From positions 3,992 to 67,991 of the forward strand of contig JABHRS010000022.1 in the NCBI GenBank assembly GCA_018670085.1: a DNA stretch of 64,000 bases. Reading direction: 5' to 3'. The notes beneath the pieces are model-generated. The model saw only the letters and a list, made by a program, of their open reading frames with translations, did no database searches and was not told the DNA's origin. Source of the stretch: an archaeon (GTDB taxonomy: Archaea; Nanobdellota; Nanobdellia; Woesearchaeales; GW2011-AR9). The first letter of the stretch is position 1. Every line of letters starts with the position of its first letter. The translations under genes and the position numbers were made by a program. Below, in pieces: positions 4,447-40,318 of the stretch.

Positions 4447-7161
4447 ATGTCAGACCAAAATTCTCCACAAAATCCTTCGACTGAAGACGCGGTTATTGCC
4501 GAAGTATCAGTTGTAGAAAATGTTGCGATCACTGAAGAAAATCAAGAAGAACACGAAGGTGAATCTTATGATAGGATCATCCCGAATCTAATTCAAGATG
4601 AAATGAAAAAGGCATACATTAGTTATGCTATGGCTGTGATTGTTGGCCGTGCACTCCCAGATGTGCGCGATGGATTAAAACCAGTTCATCGGCGAATTTT
4701 GTATGCAATGCAAGACCTTGGGATGTACCACAATAAGGCATCAAAAAAATGTGCAAGAATTGTAGGGGAAGTTCTGGGTAAATATCACCCGCATGGTGAC
4801 ACTGCAGTATATGATGCATTGGTTAGAATGGCTCAAGATTTTTCTTTACGTTATCCATTAATTAAAGGTCAAGGGAATTTTGGTTCAGTTGATGGTGATA
4901 ACGCTGCGGCTATGAGGTACACTGAAGCAAAACTAAGTAAACTTGCTGAAGACTTACTTGAAGACCTTAGTAAAGACACAGTTGATTGGAGAAATAATTT
5001 TGATGACTCTCTTAAGGAGCCTGCAGTTCTTCCAAGTAAAATTCCAAACTTATTGATGAATGGGAGTAGTGGGATTGCAGTTGGAATGGCAACTAACATT
5101 CCACCCCATAATTTGACTGAACTATGTACTGCAATTGTTGCATTAATTGATAATCCTGAATTAGAACTTGACGAATTAATTAAAATTATCCCTGGGCCTG
5201 ATTTTCCAACTGGAGCAGATGTTTATGTTGGAGGTAGCTTGAAGGCAGCATACGCAACAGGAAGAGGAAGAGTGATTATTAAATCCGTTGCCACAATTGA
5301 AGATGAAAAAAGAAAAATTATTGTTTCAGAACTTCCTTACCAAGTTAACAAATCTAATTTGATTAAACAGATTGCGGACCTGGTGAAGGACAAAAGAGTT
5401 CAAGGTATTCGAAATATTAATGATGAGTCTGACCGTGATGGGATTAGGGTTGTAATTGATTTGAAAAAAGATGCTGATTCTGCTGTAGTGTTAAACCAAC
5501 TCTACAAATTTTCTAATTTGAAAACTTCATTTAGTTTGAACATGCTGGCGTTAGTTGATAACGCGCCGAGACTTTTGAGTATTAAACAATTTCTTGAAGA
5601 ATATATTAAACACCGGAAAGAAGTTGTAACAAGAAGAACACAATACGAACTTAATGAAGCTGAAAAAAGATTACATATTCTTGATGGTCTTTTAATCGCA
5701 TTAACTAACTTGGATGCGATTATCCCAGCTATTCGTGGCAGTCGCACTGTTGAAGATGCGCGAAATTATCTGATTTCAAATTTTGAACTGTCAGAAATTC
5801 AAGCAAGAGCTATCTTGGATTTGAAATTACAAAAATTAGCTGGTCTTGAAAGAGAAAAGATTTCAGGAGAACATGCTGAACTGATGAAAATTGTGGAAAC
5901 TTTGAGAGGTATTTTGGCTTCTGAGGAAAAAATTTATTCTATCATTAAAGAAGAGATTGGTGAAGTTTCTGAAAAGTATGGTGGACCAAGACGTAGTAAA
6001 ATTGTCTTCAACGAAGACGATACTTTAGATATTGAAGATTTGATTGAGGAAGAAACAGTTGTTTTAACTAAAACAAACAGTGGTTATCTGAAAAGAATCT
6101 CTCTTGATGCTTACAGAACTCAAGGACGTGGCGGAAAAGGAGTTGTTGCAACTAACATGAAAGATGGAGACTTTATTGATGATGTATTTGTCTGCTCAAC
6201 TCATGCATGGTTATTATTATTTACTAGTTTTGGAAAAGTTCATTGGATTAAAACTTACCATATCCCTGTAGGTTCTCGTCAATCGCGCGGAAAACATATT
6301 TCTAATATTGTAGAATTTAGAGAAGGTGAAACAATTAGTGCGCTAATTCCAGTTGCATCACTTGAAGAAGAAAATGTTGAAGGGTATGTAGTTATGGCAA
6401 CTGCTAGTGGGACCATCAAAAAAACAGAACTGTCTTCGTTCTCCAAACCGAGGAAAGGTGGAATTAGAGCGATTCAGCTATTAGAAGATGATTCTTTAAT
6501 CGGAGCGAAAGTTAGTTCTGGTGGAGACAATATTATCTTGGTTACAAAGAAGGGGCTTGCTAATCGATTTAGCGAGATTACAGTTAGAGCGATGGGAAGG
6601 AGCGCTCGCGGAGTTAGAGGGATCAGGTTAAAAGAAAACGACAAAGTAGTATCAGTTCTAGTTTCTAATGAAACTTCAGAAGTACTAACTATCACAAAGA
6701 AAGGTTATGGTAAACGGAGCGTAGTTACAGATTACCGACTTTGTAATCGTGGCGGGAGAGGAGTAATTAATCTAAAAGTTACTGATAAAAATGGGCCTGT
6801 TGTGGATGCAAAATTAGTTACAGGCGATGAACAATTAATGTTAATGAGTAAAGAGGGGATTGCAATTAGAATTGCAGTGACTGGAGTTCCGACAATTGGT
6901 AGGTCAACTCAAGGTGTTAGAGTTATGCGATTTAAACGAGAAGACGATATGGTTGCAGCTGTTGCAATAATCAGATCAGAACATATTTCTGAAGACAGTG
7001 AAGATATAGATGAAAATGATGTTGAAGGTGTAGAAAAAAAAGAGACTTTAGAGATTGAGAGTTCAGTTGATAATGAATCAGCAGTACAAATCGAAGAAGA
7101 GGAAGCGGTGGAAAATTCAGAACAGACAGAGGAAGCCCCAGAAAATGAGCCTAGTGAATAA
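4447..7161 (+). CDS. gyrA: DNA gyrase subunit A
   Basis: [19 protein letters not shown], catalytic-tyrosine motif [11 protein letters not shown]-terminal pinwheel repeats carry QGRGGKG / NRGGRG motifs. Acidic N-terminal (~40 aa) and C-terminal (~60 aa) tails. Confidence 0.95.
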
Positions 7162-9879: not shown

Positions 9880-12800
9880 CTAACCCATAAAAGCACTCAA
9901 ACCTACCTGACGATCCTTCTCTTTACCAAACACCACATCAATATTTAATTTTAGAAGGTTAATTGTTTCTTTAAGATAAGGAGAGAAATCATACTCATCA
10001 CAAAGGTCAAGCGACATCTGCACATACTTAACAACAGAACCTTGCGAAATTGTAAAAATTATATTTCCTTTAGTGCACTCGGTACAGTTCATAGAAATTG
10101 GTGGCCTTCTGTATTTAGTGTTACAAGTTGTACAACGAAAACCCTGCATACTAAACTTACGGAAATTTCCTTTAATATCCGCTAAAAAGTGTTTACGAAT
10201 AACTAAGGCTGCAACCAGATCCATATCAACCGCTCTCACCTTTTTGGCAATATCCATTTGGCCAAATAATTTCTCCTTCATACTTGGAAGAGTCTTATAC
10301 GCACTACATTGGATTCCTTTATTAAAATCGTCAACATCGTGAGTGAAACCAAAATCTTCATATTGATTTTCTTTACCAACTCTATCATCAAGTTGTTCAA
10401 TTTTTTTTTGGTCAGGACCATACTTTAACTCCCATGGTTTTTTCATCTCTAAAGCTGCCTCATAAAGTTCTAGTGGGTAATTCCACATTACATCAACCCC
10501 TAAAACTTGATCGTCAACTTCTGCTGGAGATAATACTGGAGTTAGAACTAACGCAGCATCCATAGTAGAACCCCTGCTAGAAGGCAAATATTCTTTGGAA
10601 AAATTGAGAAGGCCATCCATTAAAAGCATCACTGCAGCTTCATCTCCATCACAATCTCTACGCATTCCTGCATGATACATGGGATGGGCCAGTAAACTTT
10701 GAGTCTGAGAAAAACCAATAATTCTACCAACTGTTCCAGCTGAAATGTGTGGAGCTAGTCCTATTACCAAATGCCCAATCAAATCCTCTTGTTTTTCAGC
10801 ATTATAAAATGGTTTCATCTTGTATAAATTCACCATGATTTCGTCAATAAATTTTGTGATTCTGAGTAGAACTTTAGAAGATGAATCCTCGATAGCATCA
10901 TAATTTGGAAGGACTAAGTCTTGTGGTTTCATCTCCAAAACTTGATTAGTGTCAGTTAATTCTTTCCCATGAATATCTTGTGTGTAACCAAGTTCAATTA
11001 ATTTTTTTATAGATGTTTCAATTTCTTTTGGTTTGAAATGAGTTAAAGGTAATTCAGTGCAATCATACCTAGTCGTTCCATCTTTATTTACTGCAACCGA
11101 ATATTTTGCCCGATAAATTCCCTTGATCAAATTTTCAGGGATCTTTGCTTTGTTTGAAACACCTTTAACACCCTTAATTACATCAGGATAAATTCGGAGG
11201 TTCAGTTCTTTTAGGACCTTTTTGAAATAATCTTTGATGTTTAAGTTACCATAGGCATAATCGTCAGAACGATTGTCTTTAGTTTCAAACAACTCACCAT
11301 ATTGCTGTTGAAATTTGATTAACCATTCTTTATTGAACATACTTTTGATCGTCCCCTTTTCTAAAGCTGATTGAAAAGTTTTCATCCGTCCACCCTCTTC
11401 TCCCACTGGAAATAACACATGAGGTTTACCTTTCATAGAACGCATTTTAGATTTTTCTGGACGACCCATCCTGGCACCAATAAAGGTCCCGGCCTTATCT
11501 TGCTGGATTACACTGTTGATGCTGTTTAGATACTCAAGAGCATTTTGGCAATCTTTTGACTTTATTGGATCAATGGCTAAATTTGAAAGCTGTTTTTGAG
11601 AATTTAAATTGAATAGTTTGAGGATTAATTTTGCTTGATCTTTTTCTAAAACTAAATTTTCCTTATCTAAAACCAAATGAGGAATACCTATTTTTTCTAA
11701 CAATGCTTTTCCTTTGATTTGTACTGATTGGGATTCGAATAAAGGAAGGATTATTTTTTCTGTTGTTTCTGTTGAATGTATTTCTTCTTCACTGCCTTTT
11801 ACTCCTTGTATTTTTCCAAGTTTCAAATAGCTGACAAGGGAGTTTAAATCTGAGATATTTAGAAGTTTCCAATAATAAGAATAATACGAGTGAAGTGCCA
11901 CATGGTACTCCTTAGAAATTTTTAATGCTAAATCTAATTTAGGATTAACATATAATGGTTTTTCAACGGAGTTTTGAAATTCAGTGATTTGTTCTGTGGT
12001 CAGTTTTAGTTTTTCTTTAATTTGTTCAAAATTTAATTTTTCCTTTTTGTCAAAAGCTTCTTTCCCGAGAATGGCTTTTTGTACCTCAAGAGACCACCAC
12101 TCAGGACAATAACCTGCTGGAACTAGTTTATGTCCATTCTCACTAAAGTCGCCATAGTTAAATAGGATGTCGCCCAAAAATAAAACTTCGTGGACTTCCT
12201 TCACAACTTCTTTTGCTTCAGCTTCAGTGTGCAAATATTTTACAGTCCCATCTTTTAAAATTACAGTCGGACCATCGATTGTGTCACACAAGGTGATTGT
12301 AGCTGCCTTTCCTGGTCTTTCTACTTTTAACTGAGTGCCTACTGCAATATAATCTTCAATCACAATTAAACTAGCTGGATTCATAGCAGCCGCTGAAAAT
12401 CCAGAAGTTCTTCCACGACCATATCTTAACCTTAGGCCACCTGGTGCCATGGGATGAGTAATAACTGGCCGACCAGCTACAATATCTGCGATGAAAGTGT
12501 CGTTAGCCCTTAGAACTTCTATTTTCTTTCCGTCTTTTCCAAAAGCATCTTTAGACGCTGGACCTTCCTTCGCAGCACTATGTTTTGCATGAATTTCTTC
12601 CTTTAGTTTAATGAAGTCACCCATGAATTCCCAATCCAAATCGTAATCTTTTCCCCATTTTGATAATCTTTTCCAAAGTTTTGGTGACTTCTGACAAAGC
12701 CCCTCTGCAATAACAAGACACATTCCTCCTCTGATAAGGTTTGTCTCGATCCTTGGGATATCCTTATAGTTTGATACCTCAATTCGTTCAGTTGGATCAC

Positions 12801-13599
12801 CATCAACTTCAATTGGTAAATGTTCTACCATAAATTTTAATTCTTCATTACTTGGGCGGTATTGTAAATTAGTAACCCGGTCATGATAATCATTTACTTC
12901 AATCACATAACGGCTTACTTCTTTTTCAGTTGGATCCCAAGGTGCATAACCCATTTTCACCCTAACATAATCTGCAAGAATTACTGAAACTGAAGACGCT
13001 GTACCTCCTGCTCCTCTAACTGGGCCAGCATATTGCAAAGCGAAATATTCCTTACCATTATCTCTTCTTCTTTTGAGTTTTAAACCTACAAAACCCTCTA
13101 ATGGTGCAGCTACAATCCCAAGCGTTAAGTACGCAAAACCTGTTCGGATTCCAACTTCTATTGCTTCAATTTTAGTTGGGAATTTACAAAACTTTTGCTG
13201 TGCGATTTCTTCTGCAATTCTAAACCCAACTCGCCAATCTAATAAACCAATTTCATCTTCTAACTCTTCAATACGTTCTGTGATCCCTGCACCAAGTACT
13301 TGTGGGGCTACAATTGAGATTAATCCAATTACTCGCTCTGCCATAGAATTTGCTAGCATAATCTCCACATCATCATGAGGATCTAACCCTTTTTTCCTGG
13401 CTTCCCTGGCAATTTTGTAAGAGTGATCAATCTCTTCACGCATTTTTGCAAAATATTTATGCATCGATTCTGACGCTACAATTTCCATAAAGTATATACC
13501 TCTATTTGGCTTTTTAAGGATTCGCCGCTCTGAACCTAACTGTTGGGTTCTATCCTCTAAAACAGCTATTCTCTCATTATTGAACCAAATAATCTCCAA
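9880..13599 (-). CDS. DNA polymerase II (PolD) large subunit DP2
   Basis: N-terminal YFAKMREEIDHSYKIAREARKKGLDP, catalytic RRDCDGDEAA, C-terminal zinc fingers (CTTCNTKYRRPP...CTEC). No intein-sized insertion. By comparison with Pyrococcus DP2, the ATG at 13488 (MEIVASESMHKYF) may be the true start. Confidence 0.95.
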   Translation of the reverse strand: MEIIWFNNERIAVLEDRTQQLGSERRILKKPNRGIYFMEIVASESMHKYFAKMREEIDHSYKIAREARKKGLDPHDDVEIMLANSMAERVIGLISIVAPQVLGAGITERIEELEDEIGLLDWRVGFRIAEEIAQQKFCKFPTKIEAIEVGIRTGFAYLTLGIVAAPLEGFVGLKLKRRRDNGKEYFALQYAGPVRGAGGTASSVSVILADYVRVKMGYAPWDPTEKEVSRYVIEVNDYHDRVTNLQYRPSNEELKFMVEHLPIEVDGDPTERIEVSNYKDIPRIETNLIRGGMCLVIAEGLCQKSPKLWKRLSKWGKDYDLDWEFMGDFIKLKEEIHAKHSAAKEGPASKDAFGKDGKKIEVLRANDTFIADIVAGRPVITHPMAPGGLRLRYGRGRTSGFSAAAMNPASLIVIEDYIAVGTQLKVERPGKAATITLCDTIDGPTVILKDGTVKYLHTEAEAKEVVKEVHEVLFLGDILFNYGDFSENGHKLVPAGYCPEWWSLEVQKAILGKEAFDKKEKLNFEQIKEKLKLTTEQITEFQNSVEKPLYVNPKLDLALKISKEYHVALHSYYSYYWKLLNISDLNSLVSYLKLGKIQGVKGSEEEIHSTETTEKIILPLFESQSVQIKGKALLEKIGIPHLVLDKENLVLEKDQAKLILKLFNLNSQKQLSNLAIDPIKSKDCQNALEYLNSINSVIQQDKAGTFIGARMGRPEKSKMRSMKGKPHVLFPVGEEGGRMKTFQSALEKGTIKSMFNKEWLIKFQQQYGELFETKDNRSDDYAYGNLNIKDYFKKVLKELNLRIYPDVIKGVKGVSNKAKIPENLIKGIYRAKYSVAVNKDGTTRYDCTELPLTHFKPKEIETSIKKLIELGYTQDIHGKELTDTNQVLEMKPQDLVLPNYDAIEDSSSKVLLRITKFIDEIMVNLYKMKPFYNAEKQEDLIGHLVIGLAPHISAGTVGRIIGFSQTQSLLAHPMYHAGMRRDCDGDEAAVMLLMDGLLNFSKEYLPSSRGSTMDAALVLTPVLSPAEVDDQVLGVDVMWNYPLELYEAALEMKKPWELKYGPDQKKIEQLDDRVGKENQYEDFGFTHDVDDFNKGIQCSAYKTLPSMKEKLFGQMDIAKKVRAVDMDLVAALVIRKHFLADIKGNFRKFSMQGFRCTTCNTKYRRPPISMNCTECTKGNIIFTISQGSVVKYVQMSLDLCDEYDFSPYLKETINLLKLNIDVVFGKEKDRQVGLSAFMG

Positions 13600-13701: not shown

Positions 13702-15999
13702 TTAAAATAAAGTCCGGTGTTCTTGCTTTCGCCTGTTAACATAAACTAAATGGCCGTTATGTTTTGTGAAGTAACATTGATCAGAATATGCTGTTTGGTT
13801 GATGCCTGCTATCATATTTACTTTCAGCATTTTTGATGTAACTTCATCCAGTTGTTTTTTTGTGAAATGCATGTTATGATCATTCGCTAGATATGCGATA
13901 GTTGGAATTCTTTTTCTTTGGATTATTGAGAACAGTTCAGTTTGAGTGAACCCTCCATTTAAAAGTAAAATTCCCTTTGAAAGATTGATTGAAGCAACTG
14001 AATTTTTTGGGTCAGTGGTTCGTTTTAGTAATACATTCAAATCTTTTTTAATTGAAGATAATGCTTCTACAAATAAATCCCTAACATGTTTTGGATTCAT
14101 TTTTTTGCAAAGTTCTAAATATCCTTCTGGTTGGATTGGGCTTCTTCTGTGTCCAATTCCTTGCCAAATTAATGGGTTCTTGTGAATATGTTGGAGAATT
14201 AAATAATAATTTCGATAAGGTTTATTTGTGGCATAGTACATATCTAATCCCTTAACAAATGAAGTTCCCTCTAATTCCTGCCGTAGTTTTGCTTGACCAC
14301 GATATCTCTTAGGGATCAATTGATTATCAAAATAAGTAATATTGTCTGAAGTGTAGTTGATAACTAATGAAAACTGGAAAAAGTTTTTTTCTTTTGCAAG
14401 TTTTAGCAATTGTTTGATGTTCAGATTATTTTTTTTACTTGCGAGATAAATTGCTTTGGAAAACGGATCTGAACCAATATAAAATGCGTTTGTCTCTTTA
14501 TAATTATCATAAAAATGAATTCCGTCTGCTTTGTCTGTTGAAATTTTTATCTCGTTTGTACCGAAAATATTCATTAATTCTTCATGATGAGACACCGCAT
14601 ATTCAAAAGCTTTTTTGTATGGTTTGAACTTCGCGATCCAGCCAAGATAATTTTTTCTAATCCAAAGTAAATTTTTAATTATATCTATAATCTCAGTACT
14701 CCCATGTCTGGCATCTCTTAAGCATAGTTCTGGAAATTGATCCATGGTTCCTGCAAAATCTAACATATGCCCTTTATCGATTGTAGACATTATTGGAAAT
14801 AACAGCAGGCCTCCCACTTTCCTGTTTTCATCTTTGATATATGCACTCGACCTTTGGTGTTCTTGGTAGCCAAAGGAAATTCCATCGGTAACTCTCCTGC
14901 TAAAATCAGCTGATGACTGTTTATCAGAGAAATATTTTTTCTTTCGGATTAAAGTGTCTAGTGGGCTGGCAATAACTCCATCCTTGAATAATTTTTTAGT
15001 ATTTCCTCCTGGGAAATAATGGCTAACAAAGCCTGGTGTTGCAAAGGAAGGAATCTTATCTGGGTTCATACAAAGAGCAGGAAACTTGCTAGATGAATTG
15101 AAGATGAGGATTGTTCCTTTTGGAACCTTGAAATAAATATTACATAATTGGTCAAAGTCTTTTTCTGATAAAACTTTTCTTAAATGATCTTGATTATTTT
15201 TTAACATATCAATCCATTCACTAGCGATGTTCTTGGTGTTGGTGAATGTATTCCAACTGAAATTGTAGCCAAGACAATGATGATTGTCAAAAAAATAAGC
15301 TTTTTTATGGAACTGTTCTGCCCTACCTTTCTCTAAAAAATATTTGAACATTGGAATTGATTTAATGTAGGCAGTCTTAACTGCACATTCTCTAAAATAT
15401 CCTTCAACACCCAAGATTAATTGATGACTGGAGTTGAAGTTAGTATCTTGTTTTACTTTTGTTTGATGGTCTTTAATGACATTCTTGACTTCTTTTAGTA
15501 AAGCTAAAAGTCCCATGGCAGCAGCATGCGCTTGCCCTTCTAAACTCCCAACTTTCTTTGTATCTTTTTCTTTGATTGCTTTGGCTAATTCTCCAGTGTA
15601 CCTGGAAAATTCTCTGATTAAAGTTGCTGAATGGACCCTAACTTGTTCTGAAATGTTACGAACTTTTTGTTTTTTAGAGTTATCCAAATGAGATGATAAT
15701 TTATTTATTTCTTTGAATAATTTTCTTTCATCTGTTACTCTGCGCCGCTCTACTCTGCTGATTCTATTTAAATTTCGTTTTTCATCTTGGAATATTTTTA
15801 CTACAAGCGATGCATGCTCTTGTATTTTTTTGTGATCTTTTTCGGAGAGCGCCTTTGAGCCATCCTTTATGGCAGTTTCAATTTTTAGAATGTGTTTTGT
15901 TTCTTCAATTAATTCAGATAATAATGATACTTCAAACAGTAAATCTTTCTCTTCTTTAAATTCTAATTTAGCAGCTTTTTGAGAATCCATTACCATCAA
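13702..15999 (-). CDS. uncharacterised 765-aa protein (N-terminal coiled coil plus large unknown domain) lying between the two PolD subunit genes
   Basis: Long clean ORF. Residues 1 to ~190 are Lys/Glu-rich and heptad-like; the rest is rich in aromatics, Lys and Asn with no motif I recognise (no Walker A, HExxH or DxD). Confidence 0.7.
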   Translation of the reverse strand: MMVMDSQKAAKLEFKEEKDLLFEVSLLSELIEETKHILKIETAIKDGSKALSEKDHKKIQEHASLVVKIFQDEKRNLNRISRVERRRVTDERKLFKEINKLSSHLDNSKKQKVRNISEQVRVHSATLIREFSRYTGELAKAIKEKDTKKVGSLEGQAHAAAMGLLALLKEVKNVIKDHQTKVKQDTNFNSSHQLILGVEGYFRECAVKTAYIKSIPMFKYFLEKGRAEQFHKKAYFFDNHHCLGYNFSWNTFTNTKNIASEWIDMLKNNQDHLRKVLSEKDFDQLCNIYFKVPKGTILIFNSSSKFPALCMNPDKIPSFATPGFVSHYFPGGNTKKLFKDGVIASPLDTLIRKKKYFSDKQSSADFSRRVTDGISFGYQEHQRSSAYIKDENRKVGGLLLFPIMSTIDKGHMLDFAGTMDQFPELCLRDARHGSTEIIDIIKNLLWIRKNYLGWIAKFKPYKKAFEYAVSHHEELMNIFGTNEIKISTDKADGIHFYDNYKETNAFYIGSDPFSKAIYLASKKNNLNIKQLLKLAKEKNFFQFSLVINYTSDNITYFDNQLIPKRYRGQAKLRQELEGTSFVKGLDMYYATNKPYRNYYLILQHIHKNPLIWQGIGHRRSPIQPEGYLELCKKMNPKHVRDLFVEALSSIKKDLNVLLKRTTDPKNSVASINLSKGILLLNGGFTQTELFSIIQRKRIPTIAYLANDHNMHFTKKQLDEVTSKMLKVNMIAGINQTAYSDQCYFTKHNGHLVYVNRRKQEHRTLF

Positions 16000-16075: not shown

Positions 16076-17794
16076 TCAAACAAAACGTAAAACTCTAACT
16101 TCCCTGGTCTTCAAATTTACTACTGGAACCCGTCCTGGTTCAGGATTGTGTCCAAGCTTTTCTTGGAAATCAGTTTTAGATTGCCAACAACTTCCACAGA
16201 TCATAGTAACTGCTTTATAATTTGCAACACTACTATAATGGATATGCCCAGAGATCATAATATCTGGAACTTTAGTAATTAATAGAGGGTCAACATCATA
16301 AGCTGGAAGATATGGCGTTGACTTAAAGGCAGGAGCTAAATGCCTGCGCTTTAATAAAAATTTCATAATTAAATCTGCACGGTTATATCCTCCATTATTT
16401 CGAATACTATCTACATTAGCTACATAATAATCAAAACTATAACCATGATACATCAAAACATTGATACCACCAAAATCAGGAGTCTTTGCGATAGTAATTG
16501 TGGAAGGATTAGAAACTAATTCTACGTTTTCCATTGCATGCAACTCCTCAGTATATTCTTTGTAGAAAACTGATTGAGGTTCAGCTAAATGAACTAAATC
16601 ATGATTACCTGGACAGATGAAAATTTTCTTGTCTTTTGGAATTTGTTTAATGAACCTGGTGAACTCATCATACTGACCTTTCATATCCAAGATTGTTAAT
16701 TCTTTATGTTGATTAGGGTAAATTCCGATCCCGTCAATTAAATCACCTGCGATAAATATATACTTTACTTTATTTGCAAGATCTTTCTGTGCATCACTTC
16801 CAGTCTCTGCTTTCAGCCAGTTCATACACTTTTGAAACTCTTCATCTAAAAAATTATTACTACCTACATGAATGTCTGAGAGAAAAATAGCATATTCTTC
16901 TTTCGGTGCTTTTTTAAGATCAGCTGAGTTTGGGACATCTGGCCAAACAAATTCGGATGCAAACATGATGTCACCAGAGTTGGACCCAGAGATTCCAATC
17001 ACTTCATCAAAAATTAATTCTTGAGCTTGTGCAAAGGCGGCTTTATTTTTTTGAGAAACTATTACTTTGATATGACCAGTTAAATCTTCAACTGTGATAA
17101 TATAATTATTGTTCCTGGTGAGTGCGATATCATATACAACACCAATGATTGCGCAATCTTCCTTCTCTTTTTTTTGTAATACTCTACTAATACTAGTAAC
17201 ACCTTTCATTTCAGGATGTGCACGAATTATTTTCTCTAAAAATTTGTAACGGCTCTTAAAAATCCCTGCAAAATCTTTTACTTTGTATTTTTTAGCGATG
17301 TGGGCGTAATTAACAACCACTTGATATGATACATCTATTTGCTGTTCTTCTTCTAAAGGTAAATCAAATTTTTCATTTAATCCTTCTTCAAACATTGTTC
17401 CTGGTGAATCAAAAGAAACTTCAACGCCACCTGGTTTTAACTCAGTTTTAGCTGCATGAATTGTAGTTGTAGTTCCTTGTGTTTGAATACTTGATTCAAT
17501 TGCACCTGAGAGAGAAACTGCACCTGTATTTTGAAGATGGGATTGATACAAATCCTTCTCTTCTGGAGTTTGTAAGTCGATTCTGTGAGTGTCTAGATTT
17601 TTTGAGTCTATTAATTTACCATCGTCTAATTGAAGTGAAATGTCTTGATTGTCTACAACCAATAAATTGTTTTCCTTTCGAATTTTTTCAATCAAAGTTC
17701 CATCAGTATCAGATTCAATCTGGTTCATCATCTCCTTTGTGACTAAAACTCCTTGAGCGAAGAGTTTTTCGATTAATTTTTCTTTGGATTCCAT
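16076..17794 (-). CDS. DNA polymerase II (PolD) small subunit DP1 (Mre11-like phosphoesterase/exonuclease)
   Basis: Calcineurin-like phosphoesterase motifs in order: FLSDIHVGS, IAGDLIDGIGIYP, CPGNHD, MYHGYS, SGHIH. An OB-fold region precedes them. Confidence 0.9.
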   Translation of the reverse strand: MESKEKLIEKLFAQGVLVTKEMMNQIESDTDGTLIEKIRKENNLLVVDNQDISLQLDDGKLIDSKNLDTHRIDLQTPEEKDLYQSHLQNTGAVSLSGAIESSIQTQGTTTTIHAAKTELKPGGVEVSFDSPGTMFEEGLNEKFDLPLEEEQQIDVSYQVVVNYAHIAKKYKVKDFAGIFKSRYKFLEKIIRAHPEMKGVTSISRVLQKKEKEDCAIIGVVYDIALTRNNNYIITVEDLTGHIKVIVSQKNKAAFAQAQELIFDEVIGISGSNSGDIMFASEFVWPDVPNSADLKKAPKEEYAIFLSDIHVGSNNFLDEEFQKCMNWLKAETGSDAQKDLANKVKYIFIAGDLIDGIGIYPNQHKELTILDMKGQYDEFTRFIKQIPKDKKIFICPGNHDLVHLAEPQSVFYKEYTEELHAMENVELVSNPSTITIAKTPDFGGINVLMYHGYSFDYYVANVDSIRNNGGYNRADLIMKFLLKRRHLAPAFKSTPYLPAYDVDPLLITKVPDIMISGHIHYSSVANYKAVTMICGSCWQSKTDFQEKLGHNPEPGRVPVVNLKTREVRVLRFV

Positions 17795-17843: not shown

Positions 17844-19049
17844 CTAATTATTCATTTTCAAAGATTTCTCAATTAACTCTTGAAGCTTTATTTTCATCAT
17901 CTCATCAAGGGAGACACTTACTTCACGGGTTCTACCATACCTTCCTTTGGAGATGATTTTAGCATTAATTATTCCAAGCATATCAAACTCAGCTAGAATG
18001 TCAGAGATACGTCTCTGAGTTAAAACATTAAATTGGGCCTTTTTACAGACTTGACTATAAAGTTCATAAATTTCTCCTGTGAAAAATGGACGCTTGTTAG
18101 GAGTTAATTGAAGGATTGCATACAATACTAGTTGAAATTGTTTTGGTTGACTAGTTACTGTATTAACTATCTTATCGGACTCTATTTTTTCTTCAGCCTT
18201 ATCTAAATGGTTAAGTGCAACTGTTTTGGAATTTTCACGTTCTGCTAGTTCCCCTGCTACTCGAAGTAAATCAATTGCACGACGCGCATCACCATGCTCA
18301 CGAGCAGCGTAGGCAGCACACTTCTCAACAACACCAGGTTCAACAACACCAGGAGCAAATGCTTGCTCACAACGTTGTCTTAAAATATCTTGAATTTGAA
18401 GCGCATTATATGGGGGAAAGATTAACTCTTCTTCTGATAGAGAAGATTGAACCCTTGGATCCAAATTTTCTGCAAAAACTAAATTGTTTGAGATACCAAT
18501 CAAACATATTTGAGATTGTTTTAACTCAGCATTGATACGAGTTAAGTTATAGAGCATTTCATCTCCCATCTTTTTAGTTAATTGATCGATTTCATCTAGA
18601 ACCAGTAAAACAATCTGCTTCTTGGAATCTAAAAGAGAATAAAATATATTGTAAACTTCATCTGTTGGAAGACCGGTTGCTGGAACTTCACGGCCAAATG
18701 CCTTAATTATTTGAGCAATTAAACGATATTCAGTGTCTGCTACCCTTTTTAGTTTGCAGTTAACATAAATTGATTTTAATGGGATCTCTCTTTCTTTGGC
18801 AATCTGATCCATTGATTGTAATATGTATTTTATAGACAGAGTTTTACCAGTACCAGTCTTTCCATAGACAAAAAGGTTTGAAGGGCGTTCAACTCTTAAT
18901 GAAGGTGCTAGAATATTTGCGATCTCACTAATTAATTCTTCCCGGTAAAGAATTTCACTTGGAACATAGTGGGAAAGTAGAAGAGCCTTGTTTGTAAACA
19001 ATGATTCACGTTCTAAAAAATGTTCAAAAAATTTTTTCATCTTTTTCAT
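17844..19049 (-). CDS. cdc6: Orc1/Cdc6 replication initiator
   Basis: AAA+ Walker A VYGKTGTGKT, Walker B LVLDEIDQL, sensor region, C-terminal winged helix. Adjacent to the predicted origin. Confidence 0.95.
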   Translation of the reverse strand: MKKMKKFFEHFLERESLFTNKALLLSHYVPSEILYREELISEIANILAPSLRVERPSNLFVYGKTGTGKTLSIKYILQSMDQIAKEREIPLKSIYVNCKLKRVADTEYRLIAQIIKAFGREVPATGLPTDEVYNIFYSLLDSKKQIVLLVLDEIDQLTKKMGDEMLYNLTRINAELKQSQICLIGISNNLVFAENLDPRVQSSLSEEELIFPPYNALQIQDILRQRCEQAFAPGVVEPGVVEKCAAYAAREHGDARRAIDLLRVAGELAERENSKTVALNHLDKAEEKIESDKIVNTVTSQPKQFQLVLYAILQLTPNKRPFFTGEIYELYSQVCKKAQFNVLTQRRISDILAEFDMLGIINAKIISKGRYGRTREVSVSLDEMMKIKLQELIEKSLKMNN

Positions 19050-19060
19050 TCTACACAGTT

Positions 19061-19084
19061 ACCCCCTCATTTCTCATGGAAAAT
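19061..19084 (-). promoter_or_regulatory. ORB-like box 1
   Basis: ACCCCCTCATTTCTCATGGAAAAT. The reverse strand reads TTTTCCATGAGAAATGAGGGGGT (TTCC..GAAA-type dyad plus G-string). 12 nt upstream of the cdc6 start. Confidence 0.55.
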
Positions 19085-19145
19085 AATTTAATTTTAATTC
19101 TGAAACATGTTTTTTAGGTTAAATTGCATATAACGTTGCCTTTTA

Positions 19146-19174
19146 CCTACCTACCCTATCATTTCCAGTGGAAC
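19146..19174 (-). promoter_or_regulatory. ORB-like box 2 (contains TTCCAGTGGAA core)
   Basis: CCTACCTACCCTATCATTTCCAGTGGAAC. TTCCAGTGGAA matches the mini-ORB core described for Sulfolobus and Pyrococcus origins, with an adjacent GGGTAGG string on the reverse strand. Confidence 0.65.
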
Positions 19175-19544
19175 TTCTTTAAATATATATCGAAAACAAA
19201 AGAGAGGTCTTTGAATTGTGTTATAGAAACAATGATGAATGAACAGTAAACACCGAGTATAACTAAAGTAATATGTATTTTGTACATGATTGACTGGTTT
19301 GAGATATATTTTTGAGTAGAGTTAAATGCAATCATTGTGTTGGATTAGGTCAATTTCAATTGATTAGGATGGATTGGTTGTTTTGAAAAAATTGTTTTGT
19401 GTTGTTCGCTTTTTTAGTTGGTTTGAGCATAAACTCAGTAAGAAGTTATTGAATGTGAATATAAATCAAATTGGTATTTGTTTTTTTTACTATGTGCATC
19501 TTCTTCTTCTGTTCTATGCTTTGCTACTTTCCTTCTACTGAACT

Positions 19545-19650
19545 TTTATGATTATTATGATTATTATTATATATTATATTATTATTTACAATATAGTAAA
19601 TAAATATATATATATAAATAAATTAAAATAAAAAAAAACAAAAAATCAAA
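19545..19650. other. candidate DNA unwinding element
   Basis: About 105 nt of almost pure A/T (ttatgattattatgattattattatatattatattattatttacaatatagtaaataaatatatatatataaataaattaaaataaaaaaaaac), preceded by a pyrimidine-rich tract at 19499-19540. Confidence 0.5.
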
Positions 19651-19986
19651 GGTAAAATTTTGGTTTAGGAAGAGAAATAGAGGAAGCTTCAGTCTTAAAG
19701 GTAATTCTTATGTTTAGCGCTTTGTTTATTTTTTGAATTGAAGACAAAAGATTATTTCGTTTTTCTTTTAATGATAAAGGTGTTTTTATTTTATCTAATT
19801 AATTATATTATCTCTGTTTGATTCATGTTTAAGTATTGTTTTGTTTTTTGATGAAATACATTTAACATAATAGTATTGAACCACATTCATTTTTTTCTTT
19901 TTTGCTGCTTGTTAAATGCAATTGTCTTTAAGTAGAAATTTTTGTGCGTTAGATGATTTTGATTTTTTCACTTTTTTAAAATAAGA

Positions 19987-20013
19987 GTTTCCATCGGAAG
20001 TGGAGGGGTAGGG
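19987..20013 (+). promoter_or_regulatory. ORB-like box 3 (opposite orientation)
   Basis: GTTTCCATCGGAAGTGGAGGGGTAGGG has the same dyad plus G-string architecture as boxes 1 and 2 but is inverted, on the far side of the A/T tract. Confidence 0.6.
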
Positions 20014-20589
20014 ATGTCTGATGATACAATTTATATTACTCAATGAATAAGATCTTAATAGTTGTTTGCAGAAATGAATTATCTAAAAGTTAGTTTGTCT
20101 TAGGTAGTTTATAGTCATTTTGTCCTCTATAAACAAAATAAAGCTCGTTTGTATGTATGATTGCATATAACGTTTGAAATAGCGAATAATCAGAGATATA
20201 TCTCACGTTAAATGAAATCAGTGAGAATTTGGCTTTGTTTAGTAATTTAGATCAATATGTTTGTCTGTTGTTTATGTTTGATAAATCTATAATTAAGATG
20301 TTACTATATGTATCTAGTTGAGTTAGATTATTATTTATGCATAATTGTTTAATGATGTTGTAGTTACTATTCATTATTACTGTTTATTATTAGAAGTTTT
20401 TTGTAAAGTAGATATAGTCATCTGTTTAATACTCACAATTAAGTCTTCTTTATTGGTTATCTCTTCTAAACTAAACCATTTAATCTCTTCGCTTTCATGG
20501 TTTTTTGAATTTATGTTGTAATTTTTCTAATTTATTTTTTAGTTAGTTAACAAAGATTTTATAAACAAAAATACATTAGTTATTTGTTG

Positions 20590-38581: not shown

Positions 38582-40318
38582 TTATTGGCTATTTTTTAAG
38601 AATTCTCTAGCTTTAAACAAAATAGCAATTGTTTCTACGTTATTGATTTTACCATTCATACACCATTCAATTGCTTGGTCGAATGGAATTTTTAGAAGTT
38701 CAATTTCTTCGTCATCATCTTGATTATCCTCTCTAAAAGATAAATTTTTGGCAATAAAATAACTATCAACATGTGGGCCAGTAGAAGGATCTATCTCTAA
38801 ACTACCTAACTCAATGAACTCTGTTGCAACAATTCCAGCTTCTTCTTGTAACTCTCTTTTGGCGGCTTCTAATTTTGACTCGCCTTTTTCTAATCCACCT
38901 CCAATTAATTCTATATTGTAATCTTGGATGGGATAACGATATTCTTTGATTAGGTAGACATTGTTTTCTTTATCAATAGGTAAGATACAAACCCCATCCA
39001 TTACCTTGATGTAAGTGTATTCTCCTTTGTTCCCATTTGGATTAATTACTTCATCAAAATAAGTATCAAATATTTTACCAGAATGAATCTTTTCACTGGA
39101 AACCTGAGTCCAATTACCTATTTTGACCCCCTTCGTTTCCGATGGAACTTTAGTCATTTTAGGTTCATTTTGAACAAGACTAAGTGTTGTTTGCTGAACC
39201 TTTAGTGTTCCTTTCTTGGAAGTAATTCTATTGTTTTTTTCATTGACCACAAAAGAAGTTCTAAGGAATTGCTCAAGCACATGGACATTAGTTGTACTAT
39301 GTTTTGTAATATCATTAGTTACAATTGAGGAATTTGGAAGTAGAGCCATATAGATTAGTAACTGATCTGCGAGGTAATGATCAACAGCAGCCCCTGAATC
39401 AATAAGTTGTTTTAGTTTTTTTGCAACACCTTGGCCAATTTCTTCAGAAGAAACACCCTTCTCAATTAACATCGAGGAAGCTAACCTGATGCAATTTGTT
39501 GGATTAATATCTCCGTTTTTACTATGTACAGTCCAAAGTAAAAATTCTCCTCCTGTTGAAAGAGCAGGAAAATAACCTTTATCGATACTTACAGGGATCC
39601 TTAAATTTCTAAAACTGGTGGTTGCAGCAGCCTCAACACGCCTTGCAACTTCAACGTCGGAAAGATTTCTTGAAGAATTAACAAAGCCTTTAACATATTC
39701 TAATTTACCTTGACTTGTGAAATCAAATTTTCTAACTCCAGTTGAAATTTTTGAAATTAAAGACTGAATATCACTGAACTCTTTTAATTTGAATTTTGGA
39801 GTAATTTCTAAAACTATTTCTCCACCACCTTTTGGATAATAACCTCGCTTAGTTACACTAAGAGTTAGTTTGTTTGCAAAACGTTGAAGGTTTGGTAGCA
39901 GAATAGATTGTAAATAATCAACTGAAGCTTGCCATTTTCCACAAGTACCTCCCTTGATTGTAAGAGTGACTTTACTCGGTGCGAAAAGACAAGGAGGGAG
40001 GACTGCTTGTAAAAATAAACTAATACTACCTGCAGTTTTGATATCAAAAGTGTATTGGCCAGATTTTATCTGACCTGGATGAAACCAAAATTCAGTTGTT
40101 CCAAGTTCGATTGGACTTGTTTTAGTGGTTGGTGCTAATTGTTTTAATGCTTTGATTGCTTCAAGATGTTGGGCCTTGAGCCCAGTTTTTGGCCTTCCAC
40201 TTCGAATATTTTTGATTTTGAACGGTTTTTGACTAAGCATGGATGAAGCTAAAGCAGTTCTCACCAATGCTCCGCCCCCTTCACCAAAGGACCCATCCAA
40301 TTCAATCATTTGTGCCAT
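38582..40318 (-). CDS. rtcA: RNA 3'-terminal phosphate cyclase (RtcA) fused to a C-terminal Nudix hydrolase domain
   Basis: N-terminal ~345 aa: IELDGSFGEGGGALVRTALA, GLKAQHLEAI, VDHYLADQLLIYMAL (RtcA). C-terminal ~190 aa carry an exact Nudix box GGLEKGESKLEAAKRELQEEAGI in an ADP-ribose-pyrophosphatase-like context. Confidence 0.8.
   Translation of the reverse strand: MAQMIELDGSFGEGGGALVRTALASSMLSQKPFKIKNIRSGRPKTGLKAQHLEAIKALKQLAPTTKTSPIELGTTEFWFHPGQIKSGQYTFDIKTAGSISLFLQAVLPPCLFAPSKVTLTIKGGTCGKWQASVDYLQSILLPNLQRFANKLTLSVTKRGYYPKGGGEIVLEITPKFKLKEFSDIQSLISKISTGVRKFDFTSQGKLEYVKGFVNSSRNLSDVEVARRVEAAATTSFRNLRIPVSIDKGYFPALSTGGEFLLWTVHSKNGDINPTNCIRLASSMLIEKGVSSEEIGQGVAKKLKQLIDSGAAVDHYLADQLLIYMALLPNSSIVTNDITKHSTTNVHVLEQFLRTSFVVNEKNNRITSKKGTLKVQQTTLSLVQNEPKMTKVPSETKGVKIGNWTQVSSEKIHSGKIFDTYFDEVINPNGNKGEYTYIKVMDGVCILPIDKENNVYLIKEYRYPIQDYNIELIGGGLEKGESKLEAAKRELQEEAGIVATEFIELGSLEIDPSTGPHVDSYFIAKNLSFREDNQDDDEEIELLKIPFDQAIEWCMNGKINNVETIAILFKAREFLKNSQ

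Follow-up and report, generated by a model that had tools for sequence, protein, structure and literature searches.

A predicted Orc1/Cdc6-dependent chromosomal origin module beside orc1 in a Woesearchaeales archaeon

The window examined here is a stretch of 64,000 nucleotides from a Woesearchaeales (DPANN) archaeon, corresponding to positions 3992-67991 of contig C37 in an assembly of 1.48 Mb (37 contigs, 34% G+C, 94% complete). It carries the initiator gene orc1/cdc6, and a spacer at 19050-20583 separates the start of this gene (19049, minus strand) from its neighbor, which begins at 20584. The spacer contains three boxes resembling origin recognition boxes (ORBs), a tract consisting almost entirely of A and T, and two further short motifs (Table 1). 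The module from 19061 to 20013 is very probably an Orc1/Cdc6-dependent chromosomal origin (oriC), as predicted from its sequence. The initial annotation had located an oriC beside an orc1/cdc6-DP1-DP2 cluster. All three genes were found, although an open reading frame (ORF) of 765 aa, unrelated to either neighbor, separates DP1 from DP2. A whole-genome search returned a single PF09079 match in the assembly, and orc1 is therefore its sole gene bearing a Cdc6_C domain.

The three boxes that had been described are present at the positions given for them, and box 3 (ORB3) is inverted relative to boxes 1 and 2 (ORB1 and ORB2). A 40-nt weight matrix based on these three boxes themselves proved overfitted and uninformative. 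A matrix of 28 nt derived from 74 boxes of relatives, with this genome excluded, was used instead (consensus tTTCCAtagGAAAtnAAGGGGTgaGgG). The ORB consensus obtained from the relatives alone, TTCCAnnnGAAAynAAGGGGt, is matched by all three boxes. With the relatives-only matrix, eight sites scoring at least 20 bits were found across the assembly, compared with approximately 0.3-1 in Markov-simulated genomes. The density of boxes is not a genome-wide property, as three of these sites fall within about 1 kb here versus five in the remaining 1.48 Mb. The boxes are similarly rare in the relatives. When the genomes of 10 relatives were searched with a strict box pattern, each contained 0-3 sites, the majority of them at the orc1 locus, while the reversed control pattern yielded 0-1. 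In the 940 kb sampled from relative G001, no site other than the two origin boxes reaches 18 bits. ORB2 is conserved in the closest relative, L002, along with its upstream flank TTTTCGATATnTATTTAAA, and a box nearly identical in sequence to ORB3 occurs in L028.

The spatial arrangement of the boxes was compared among 80 orc1 loci from other genomes, whose Orc1 proteins are 60-89% identical to that encoded here. With the simple pattern TTCCAnnnGAAA-N-GGGG, a box that faces the gene is mostly found 25-130 nt upstream of orc1, and its inverted counterpart lies a few hundred nucleotides further away. The layout was counted in the 52 relatives with at least 1.6 kb of sequence upstream of orc1. A proximal box directed towards orc1 and an inverted distal box, located approximately 250-1300 nt upstream, occur in 51 of the 52. 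In every relative that has both boxes (51/51), the 80-nt window with the highest A+T content falls between them. The matrix was partly derived from the boxes of the same relatives; position, orientation, and the A/T maximum are not imposed by it. The distance between the inverted ORBs is about 810 nt here, and the median in the relatives is 529 nt. Thus, the anatomy proposed in the initial annotation, with inverted ORBs around a duplex-unwinding element (DUE) beside orc1, is borne out both by this recurrence and by the rarity of boxes elsewhere in the relatives' genomes.

The A/T tract lies where the initial annotation had placed it and is the sole place in the 1.48-Mb assembly with 100-nt windows of at least 95% A+T. 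A palindrome is located in the middle of this predicted DUE. With up to two mismatches allowed, the palindrome TTTCAATATTGAAA is present as one copy between the ORBs in 40 of the 51 relatives, in most cases 0.35-0.57 of the way from one ORB to the other; in L002 it reads TTACAATATTGTAA. The second motif, ATTGCATWTAAC, occurs four times in the spacer versus 10 times in the whole genome. The exact 15-mer ATTGCATATAACGTT, of which the first copy is part, is found genome-wide only at its two positions in the spacer. In 23 of the 51 relatives, TGCATTTAAC occurs between the ORBs, typically as an inverted pair at approximately 0.2 and 0.63 of the distance; the copy on the orc1 side of the DUE usually falls at about 0.6-0.65. 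Many short repeats arise in the A/T-rich DNA of the spacer.

The model that we propose for this module draws on the literature on archaeal origins (PMC1904270, PMC12141716, PMC5333045). A single Orc1 would bind each ORB as a monomer, as inferred from Sulfolobus oriC1 and Pyrococcus oriC. By analogy, the opposed outer boxes would direct MCM, whose gene is 5 kb from the module, onto the A/T tract, where the duplex would open. The central palindrome is probably the site of an accessory DNA-binding protein, and this protein may play a role like that of UBP on the ucm motif in Sulfolobus. Since the G-string of ORB1 ends 12 nt before the ATG of orc1, downstream of an A/T-rich TATA-like stretch, we propose, again by analogy, that Orc1 bound at ORB1 probably also represses its own gene.

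Table 1. Coordinates of the features in and around the predicted origin module (window positions, unless a contig is given)
Feature	Coordinates	Strand	Remarks
gyrA	4447-7161		Behind orc1, on the DP2 side
DP2	9880-13599	-	Pfam 1e-118
765-aa ORF	13702-15999	-	Between DP1 and DP2
DP1 (PolD small subunit)	16076-17794	-	Pfam
orc1/cdc6	17844-19049	-	Pfam Cdc6_C 8e-27, Cdc6_lid 3.5e-25, AAA_22
ORB1 (proximal)	19061-19084	-	33.9 bits; plus-strand reading ACCCCCTCATTTCTCATGGAAAAT, orc1 strand TTTTCCATGAGAAATGAGGGGGTAACTG; points towards orc1
ATTGCATWTAAC copy 1	19123-19134	+	ATTGCATATAAC; between ORB1 and ORB2
ORB2 (second proximal)	19146-19174	-	21.0 bits; plus-strand reading CCTACCTACCCTATCATTTCCAGTGGAAC; as minus-strand feature GTTCCACTGGAAATGATAGGGTAGG; same orientation as ORB1
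ATTGCATWTAAC copy 2	19321-19332	-	ATTGCATTTAAC; orc1 side of DUE
A/T-rich DUE (predicted)	19545-19650		94% A+T
Central palindrome	19586-19599		TTACAATATAGTAA (family TTWCWATATWGWAA); mid-DUE; 3 mismatches to TTTCAATATTGAAA
ATTGCATWTAAC copy 3	19911-19922	-	ATTGCATTTAAC; just inside ORB3
ORB3 (distal)	19987-20013	+	31.6 bits; GTTTCCATCGGAAGTGGAGGGGTAGGG, inverse of the other two boxes; TTTCCATCGGAAGTGGAGGGGTAGGG; points away from orc1
ATTGCATWTAAC copy 4	20160-20171	+	ATTGCATATAAC; ~150 nt outside ORB3
SpoIIM-family membrane protein gene	20584-21435	+	Next gene beyond the spacer, divergent from orc1
tbp-mcm-OB-fold (tbp-mcm-rpa) operon	27635-24035	-	5 kb away on the other side of the spacer
OB-fold gene	24035-24826		Pfam OB-fold
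mcm	24841-26907		Pfam MCM
tbp	27042-27635		
ORB-like box at operon promoter	27742-27769	-	ATCTCCATAGGAAACAAGGGGGTTGGTA; 26.9 bits; ~25 nt upstream of TATA-like box
Intragenic near-consensus ORB box	C37:43113-43140 (window 39122-39149)		20-27 bits (range of the four intragenic boxes)
Intragenic near-consensus ORB box	C19:52433-52460		
Intragenic near-consensus ORB box	C35:25765-25792		
Intragenic near-consensus ORB box	C34:21851-21878		

The strand composition was examined around the module and around its homologs. On the module's own contig, gene orientation and the shortness of the left arm confound the raw keto and GC skews. Third-codon skews (GC3 and AT3) were used, all expressed for the plus strand and with means taken over genes of both strands, which removes the coding-strand component. 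A skew reversal was found at the homologous locus of five relatives (G001, G003, G005, G010, and L038). In the 1.56-Mb contig of G001, windows between 40 and 820 kb have a positive corrected AT3 skew, and almost all of those beyond 820 kb a negative one. The ORBs of this relative are located at 820.0-820.6 kb, and the opposite switch lies at approximately 30-40 kb, half a genome away. The switch in G003 falls between the 452-472 and 472-492 kb windows, with the ORBs at 468 kb. In L038 the flip is sharp: the GC3 skew is -0.6 in the three genes upstream, compared with +0.47 in orc1 and +0.38 in DP1, all five genes being on the same strand.

Several observations weigh against this module as the chromosomal origin. 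The skew inflection named in the initial annotation as a check on the element is absent on its own contig, where the corrected GC3 skew does not change sign between the left side (+0.057, 16 genes, on a short arm of 23 kb) and the right (+0.107, 39 genes) and the AT3 skew is near zero on both. Other contigs of this assembly reach GC3 skews of plus or minus 0.28, and no sharp sign change occurs within any of its contigs. Four relatives (G006-G009), whose strand asymmetry ranges from moderate to very strong, show no reversal at the module over 70-390 kb on either side. Across it, the skew is +0.17 (83 genes) and +0.20 (94 genes) in G006, +0.40 and +0.43 in G007, and -0.54 and -0.53 in G009, and the AT3 skew is +0.19 and +0.13 in G008. 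The close relative G002 likewise shows no flip over 30 and 43 kb. Moreover, and oddly, five further ORB-like singletons are present in the genome, and a single box alone does not define an origin. It should be considered that many experimentally proven archaeal origins lack a clear skew. A skew reversal is therefore a supporting, rather than a strictly defining, feature of an origin.

The strand asymmetry of this assembly is independent of gene orientation, with about a third (C4, C33, C37, C14, and other contigs) weakly skewed. The very strong third-codon GC skew, here as in relatives G006, G007, and G009, stays even along entire contigs, some as long as 568 kb. In G009, 24 windows were sampled on six of the eight contigs; each has the sign of its contig, with a magnitude of approximately 0.5-0.6, and no internal flip was found in about 1.26 Mb. 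With a fixed unidirectional origin, a skew that does not reverse should keep one polarity with respect to orc1, and such a constant polarity was considered. This was rejected, because both polarities occur: the orc1 sense strand is G-rich in G009, L043, and L048 and C-rich in G006, G007, L012, L034, and L081. The variation speaks against a fixed unidirectional origin. The options that remain for the unreversed skew are rearrangement with slow re-equilibration, an alternative start site, and a lineage-specific asymmetry.

A related possibility is that the module is a real Orc1-bound origin from which replication, in a strongly skewed sub-lineage, proceeds in one direction or as a very asymmetric theta. 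One fork would then cover most or all of the circle, and one strand would be leading-like on both sides of the origin. We consider this unlikely. The absence of a sign reversal at the module in this genome and in G006, G007, G008, and G009 is in its favor, as are the single sign of each G009 contig and the lack of a sharp flip inside any contig of the present assembly, and a bacterial precedent has been proposed for small CPR (Candidate Phyla Radiation) genomes (PMC7143001). Conversely, a direction encoded by the origin predicts one polarity relative to orc1, whereas the polarity varies, and L038 has an equally strong skew yet flips sharply and classically at the module. Flips could also hide at contig breaks, since rearrangements join at repeats, where assemblies break as well, and the basis of the proposal is compositional. 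More broadly, the strongly skewed Woesearchaeales, including this genome, may have an Orc1 origin without two equal forks, through copying essentially in one direction or a start independent of the module, a conclusion to which we give a low probability. If true, unequal forks or a module-independent start would account for the GC3 skews, reaching 0.5-0.6 in magnitude, that continue without a break across the origin and along whole contigs.

The same absence of reversal would be expected if the module were a conserved Orc1-binding regulatory site, serving the autoregulation of orc1 and the control of replisome genes, and were dormant as an origin or recently relocated, with the chromosome started mainly elsewhere, at another origin or by recombination. 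Some archaea tolerate the loss of origins or of Orc1-dependent initiation, and single ORBs do occur at non-origin sites, such as the promoter of the tbp-mcm-rpa operon. Nevertheless, this explanation appears quite improbable. The layout of inverted boxes, A/T maximum, and palindrome in 51 of 52 relatives goes far beyond the needs of an operator, and in five relatives the skew switches at the module. Only a single orc1 is present in the genome, which lacks any further cluster of ORBs, and the gene order (SpoIIM-like gene, origin, orc1, DP1) is kept in the relatives, which argues against the recent relocation of a cassette. Chance similarity is a further alternative to an origin, as the spacer separates two divergent genes and A/T-rich promoter DNA yields many short repeats. 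However, the boxes score 21-34 bits on a matrix from other genomes, while chance would yield about 0.3-1 site of 20 bits in each genome, and the boxes recur with their position, orientation, and intervening A/T maximum in 51 of 52 relatives. Both findings refute this reading, to which we assign almost no probability. We regard the Orc1-dependent origin module as well supported and ordinary, being of the already known Orc1-type kind.

The five ORB-like boxes outside the module fall into two groups. The box at the tbp-mcm-rpa promoter is probably an Orc1 operator, rather than an origin. Such an operator would link the initiator to the expression of the helicase. In the close relative G002, no box of at least 18 bits was found at this promoter. 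The other four boxes are intragenic. Three of them, in the genes for the Hef helicase-nuclease, an RtcA-Nudix fusion, and an ABC ATPase, are in the sense orientation and in frame and encode K(V/S)PSExKG at sites that are apparent interdomain linkers, with a similarity extending over approximately 45 nt. A conserved protein motif was considered and rejected. The fourth box is antisense in its ORF and the linker of Hef has not been kept in the orthologues of G006 and G001, which points to an element at the DNA level and not to a protein motif. Two of the intragenic boxes have a second, G-string-less mini-ORB 8-25 nt downstream. These boxes could be Orc1 sinks, dispersed repeats, or the result of chance fixation.

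The spacer was described in the initial annotation as free of ORFs. Its boundaries stand, while three ORFs of 55-58 aa were found inside it. None is regarded as a genuine gene, as no tblastn match was obtained in the orc1 loci of the 80 relatives. No tRNA was found in the spacer, and no Rfam family scored above its gathering score there. A noncoding RNA candidate resembling a C/D-box sRNA, snoU2_19, was rejected as sub-threshold (27 bits versus a gathering score of 39, E 0.32). The match, at 19227-19304 on the plus strand, has the C box ATGATGA but no clean D box, and it is probably due to chance. The stretch at 19176-19196 (TTTTCGATATATATTTAAA on the orc1 strand), directly upstream of ORB2, matches L002 nearly base for base within an otherwise diverged spacer, and this stretch may serve as a promoter element or as a site for a protein. 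The origin proper ends at ORB3, and the 570 nt from there to the next gene, compared with approximately 235 nt in L002, contain only the fourth ATTGCATATAAC copy. On the other side of orc1, the 765-aa ORF gave no significant Pfam, NCBIfam, or PADLOC match, and among the 80 loci of relatives nothing corresponding to it lies within 4 kb of orc1. The N-terminus of its product resembles a coiled coil.

The significance of these observations lies in an order-wide origin model with four parts, namely the 20-nt ORB consensus, the layout of the boxes, the central palindrome, and the second motif. This model offers a target for Orc1 binding studies and for estimates of replication rate from metagenome coverage. 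In some relatives the skew reverses at the module, and in others a very strong skew runs through it; this division would be unexpected to a specialist, and it bears on how these tiny genomes are copied or rearranged. To our knowledge, no DPANN archaeon has an experimentally mapped origin. In the one paper that we found to treat many complete Nanobdellota genomes, orc1 simply serves as the point to which the genomes are rotated, and neither ORBs nor skew are analyzed (10.64898/2026.05.13.725050). Our literature search found no paper on such strand disparity or on unidirectional replication for Woesearchaeota.

The closest parallel to the unreversed skew comes from the CPR Microgenomates of the order UBA1400, in which a G/C disparity between the strands without skew reversal was read as possible unidirectional theta replication (PMC7143001). 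Both cases involve small, uncultured genomes of the episymbiont type, in which one strand is G-rich over long stretches and no reversal occurs at the initiator locus. The Microgenomates, however, are bacteria with DnaA, and the claim made for them is based on closed genomes. In the present case, the genomes are fragmented, the polarity relative to orc1 is variable, and close relatives do reverse at the module.

The organization of the module is similar to that of the Pyrococcus abyssi and P. furiosus oriC (PMC1904270). They share the order oriC-cdc6/orc1-dp1-dp2, as in Thermococcales, with the origin directly upstream of cdc6, as well as inverted long ORBs flanking A/T-rich DNA and the single-origin logic with one Orc1. 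P. furiosus ORB1 reads TTCCAGTGGAAATGAAACTCTGGGGGG on the relevant strand (PMC1904270), and the Pyrococcus core, TTCCAnTGGAAATGA, is almost identical to that found here. In our own alignment of box 2 (TTCCACTGGAAATGATAGGG) with P. furiosus ORB1 (TTCCAGTGGAAATGAAA), 15 of the 17 core bases agree. Here 3-4 nt separate the core from the G-string, giving a box of 20-22 nt, compared with approximately 9 nt, or some 5 nt more, in the 34-bp Pyrococcus ORB. Unlike Pyrococcus, which has an inverted ORB1/ORB2 pair and mini-ORBs, this locus has neither a swarm of mini-ORBs nor a second ORB cluster inside dp1; core-only matches number four in 18.9-20.0 kb versus 0.12 per kb genome-wide. The 765-aa ORF between DP1 and DP2 and the two extra conserved motifs further distinguish it.

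In Sulfolobus, oriC1 has the arrangement ORB3-DUE(ucm)-ORB2 next to orc1-1; both ORBs and ucm are required, and UBP binds ucm (PMC12141716). The module described here shares with the Sulfolobus/Saccharolobus oriC1 the opposed ORBs around a DUE, a motif midway between them, and the adjacent initiator gene. The two differ in scale, as the whole ORB3-DUE-ORB2 region of Sulfolobus covers approximately 130 bp, far less than the inter-ORB distance here. The motif at the center also differs, since it is an 11-bp ucm in Sulfolobus and, in this archaeon, a 14-nt palindrome unrelated to it in sequence.

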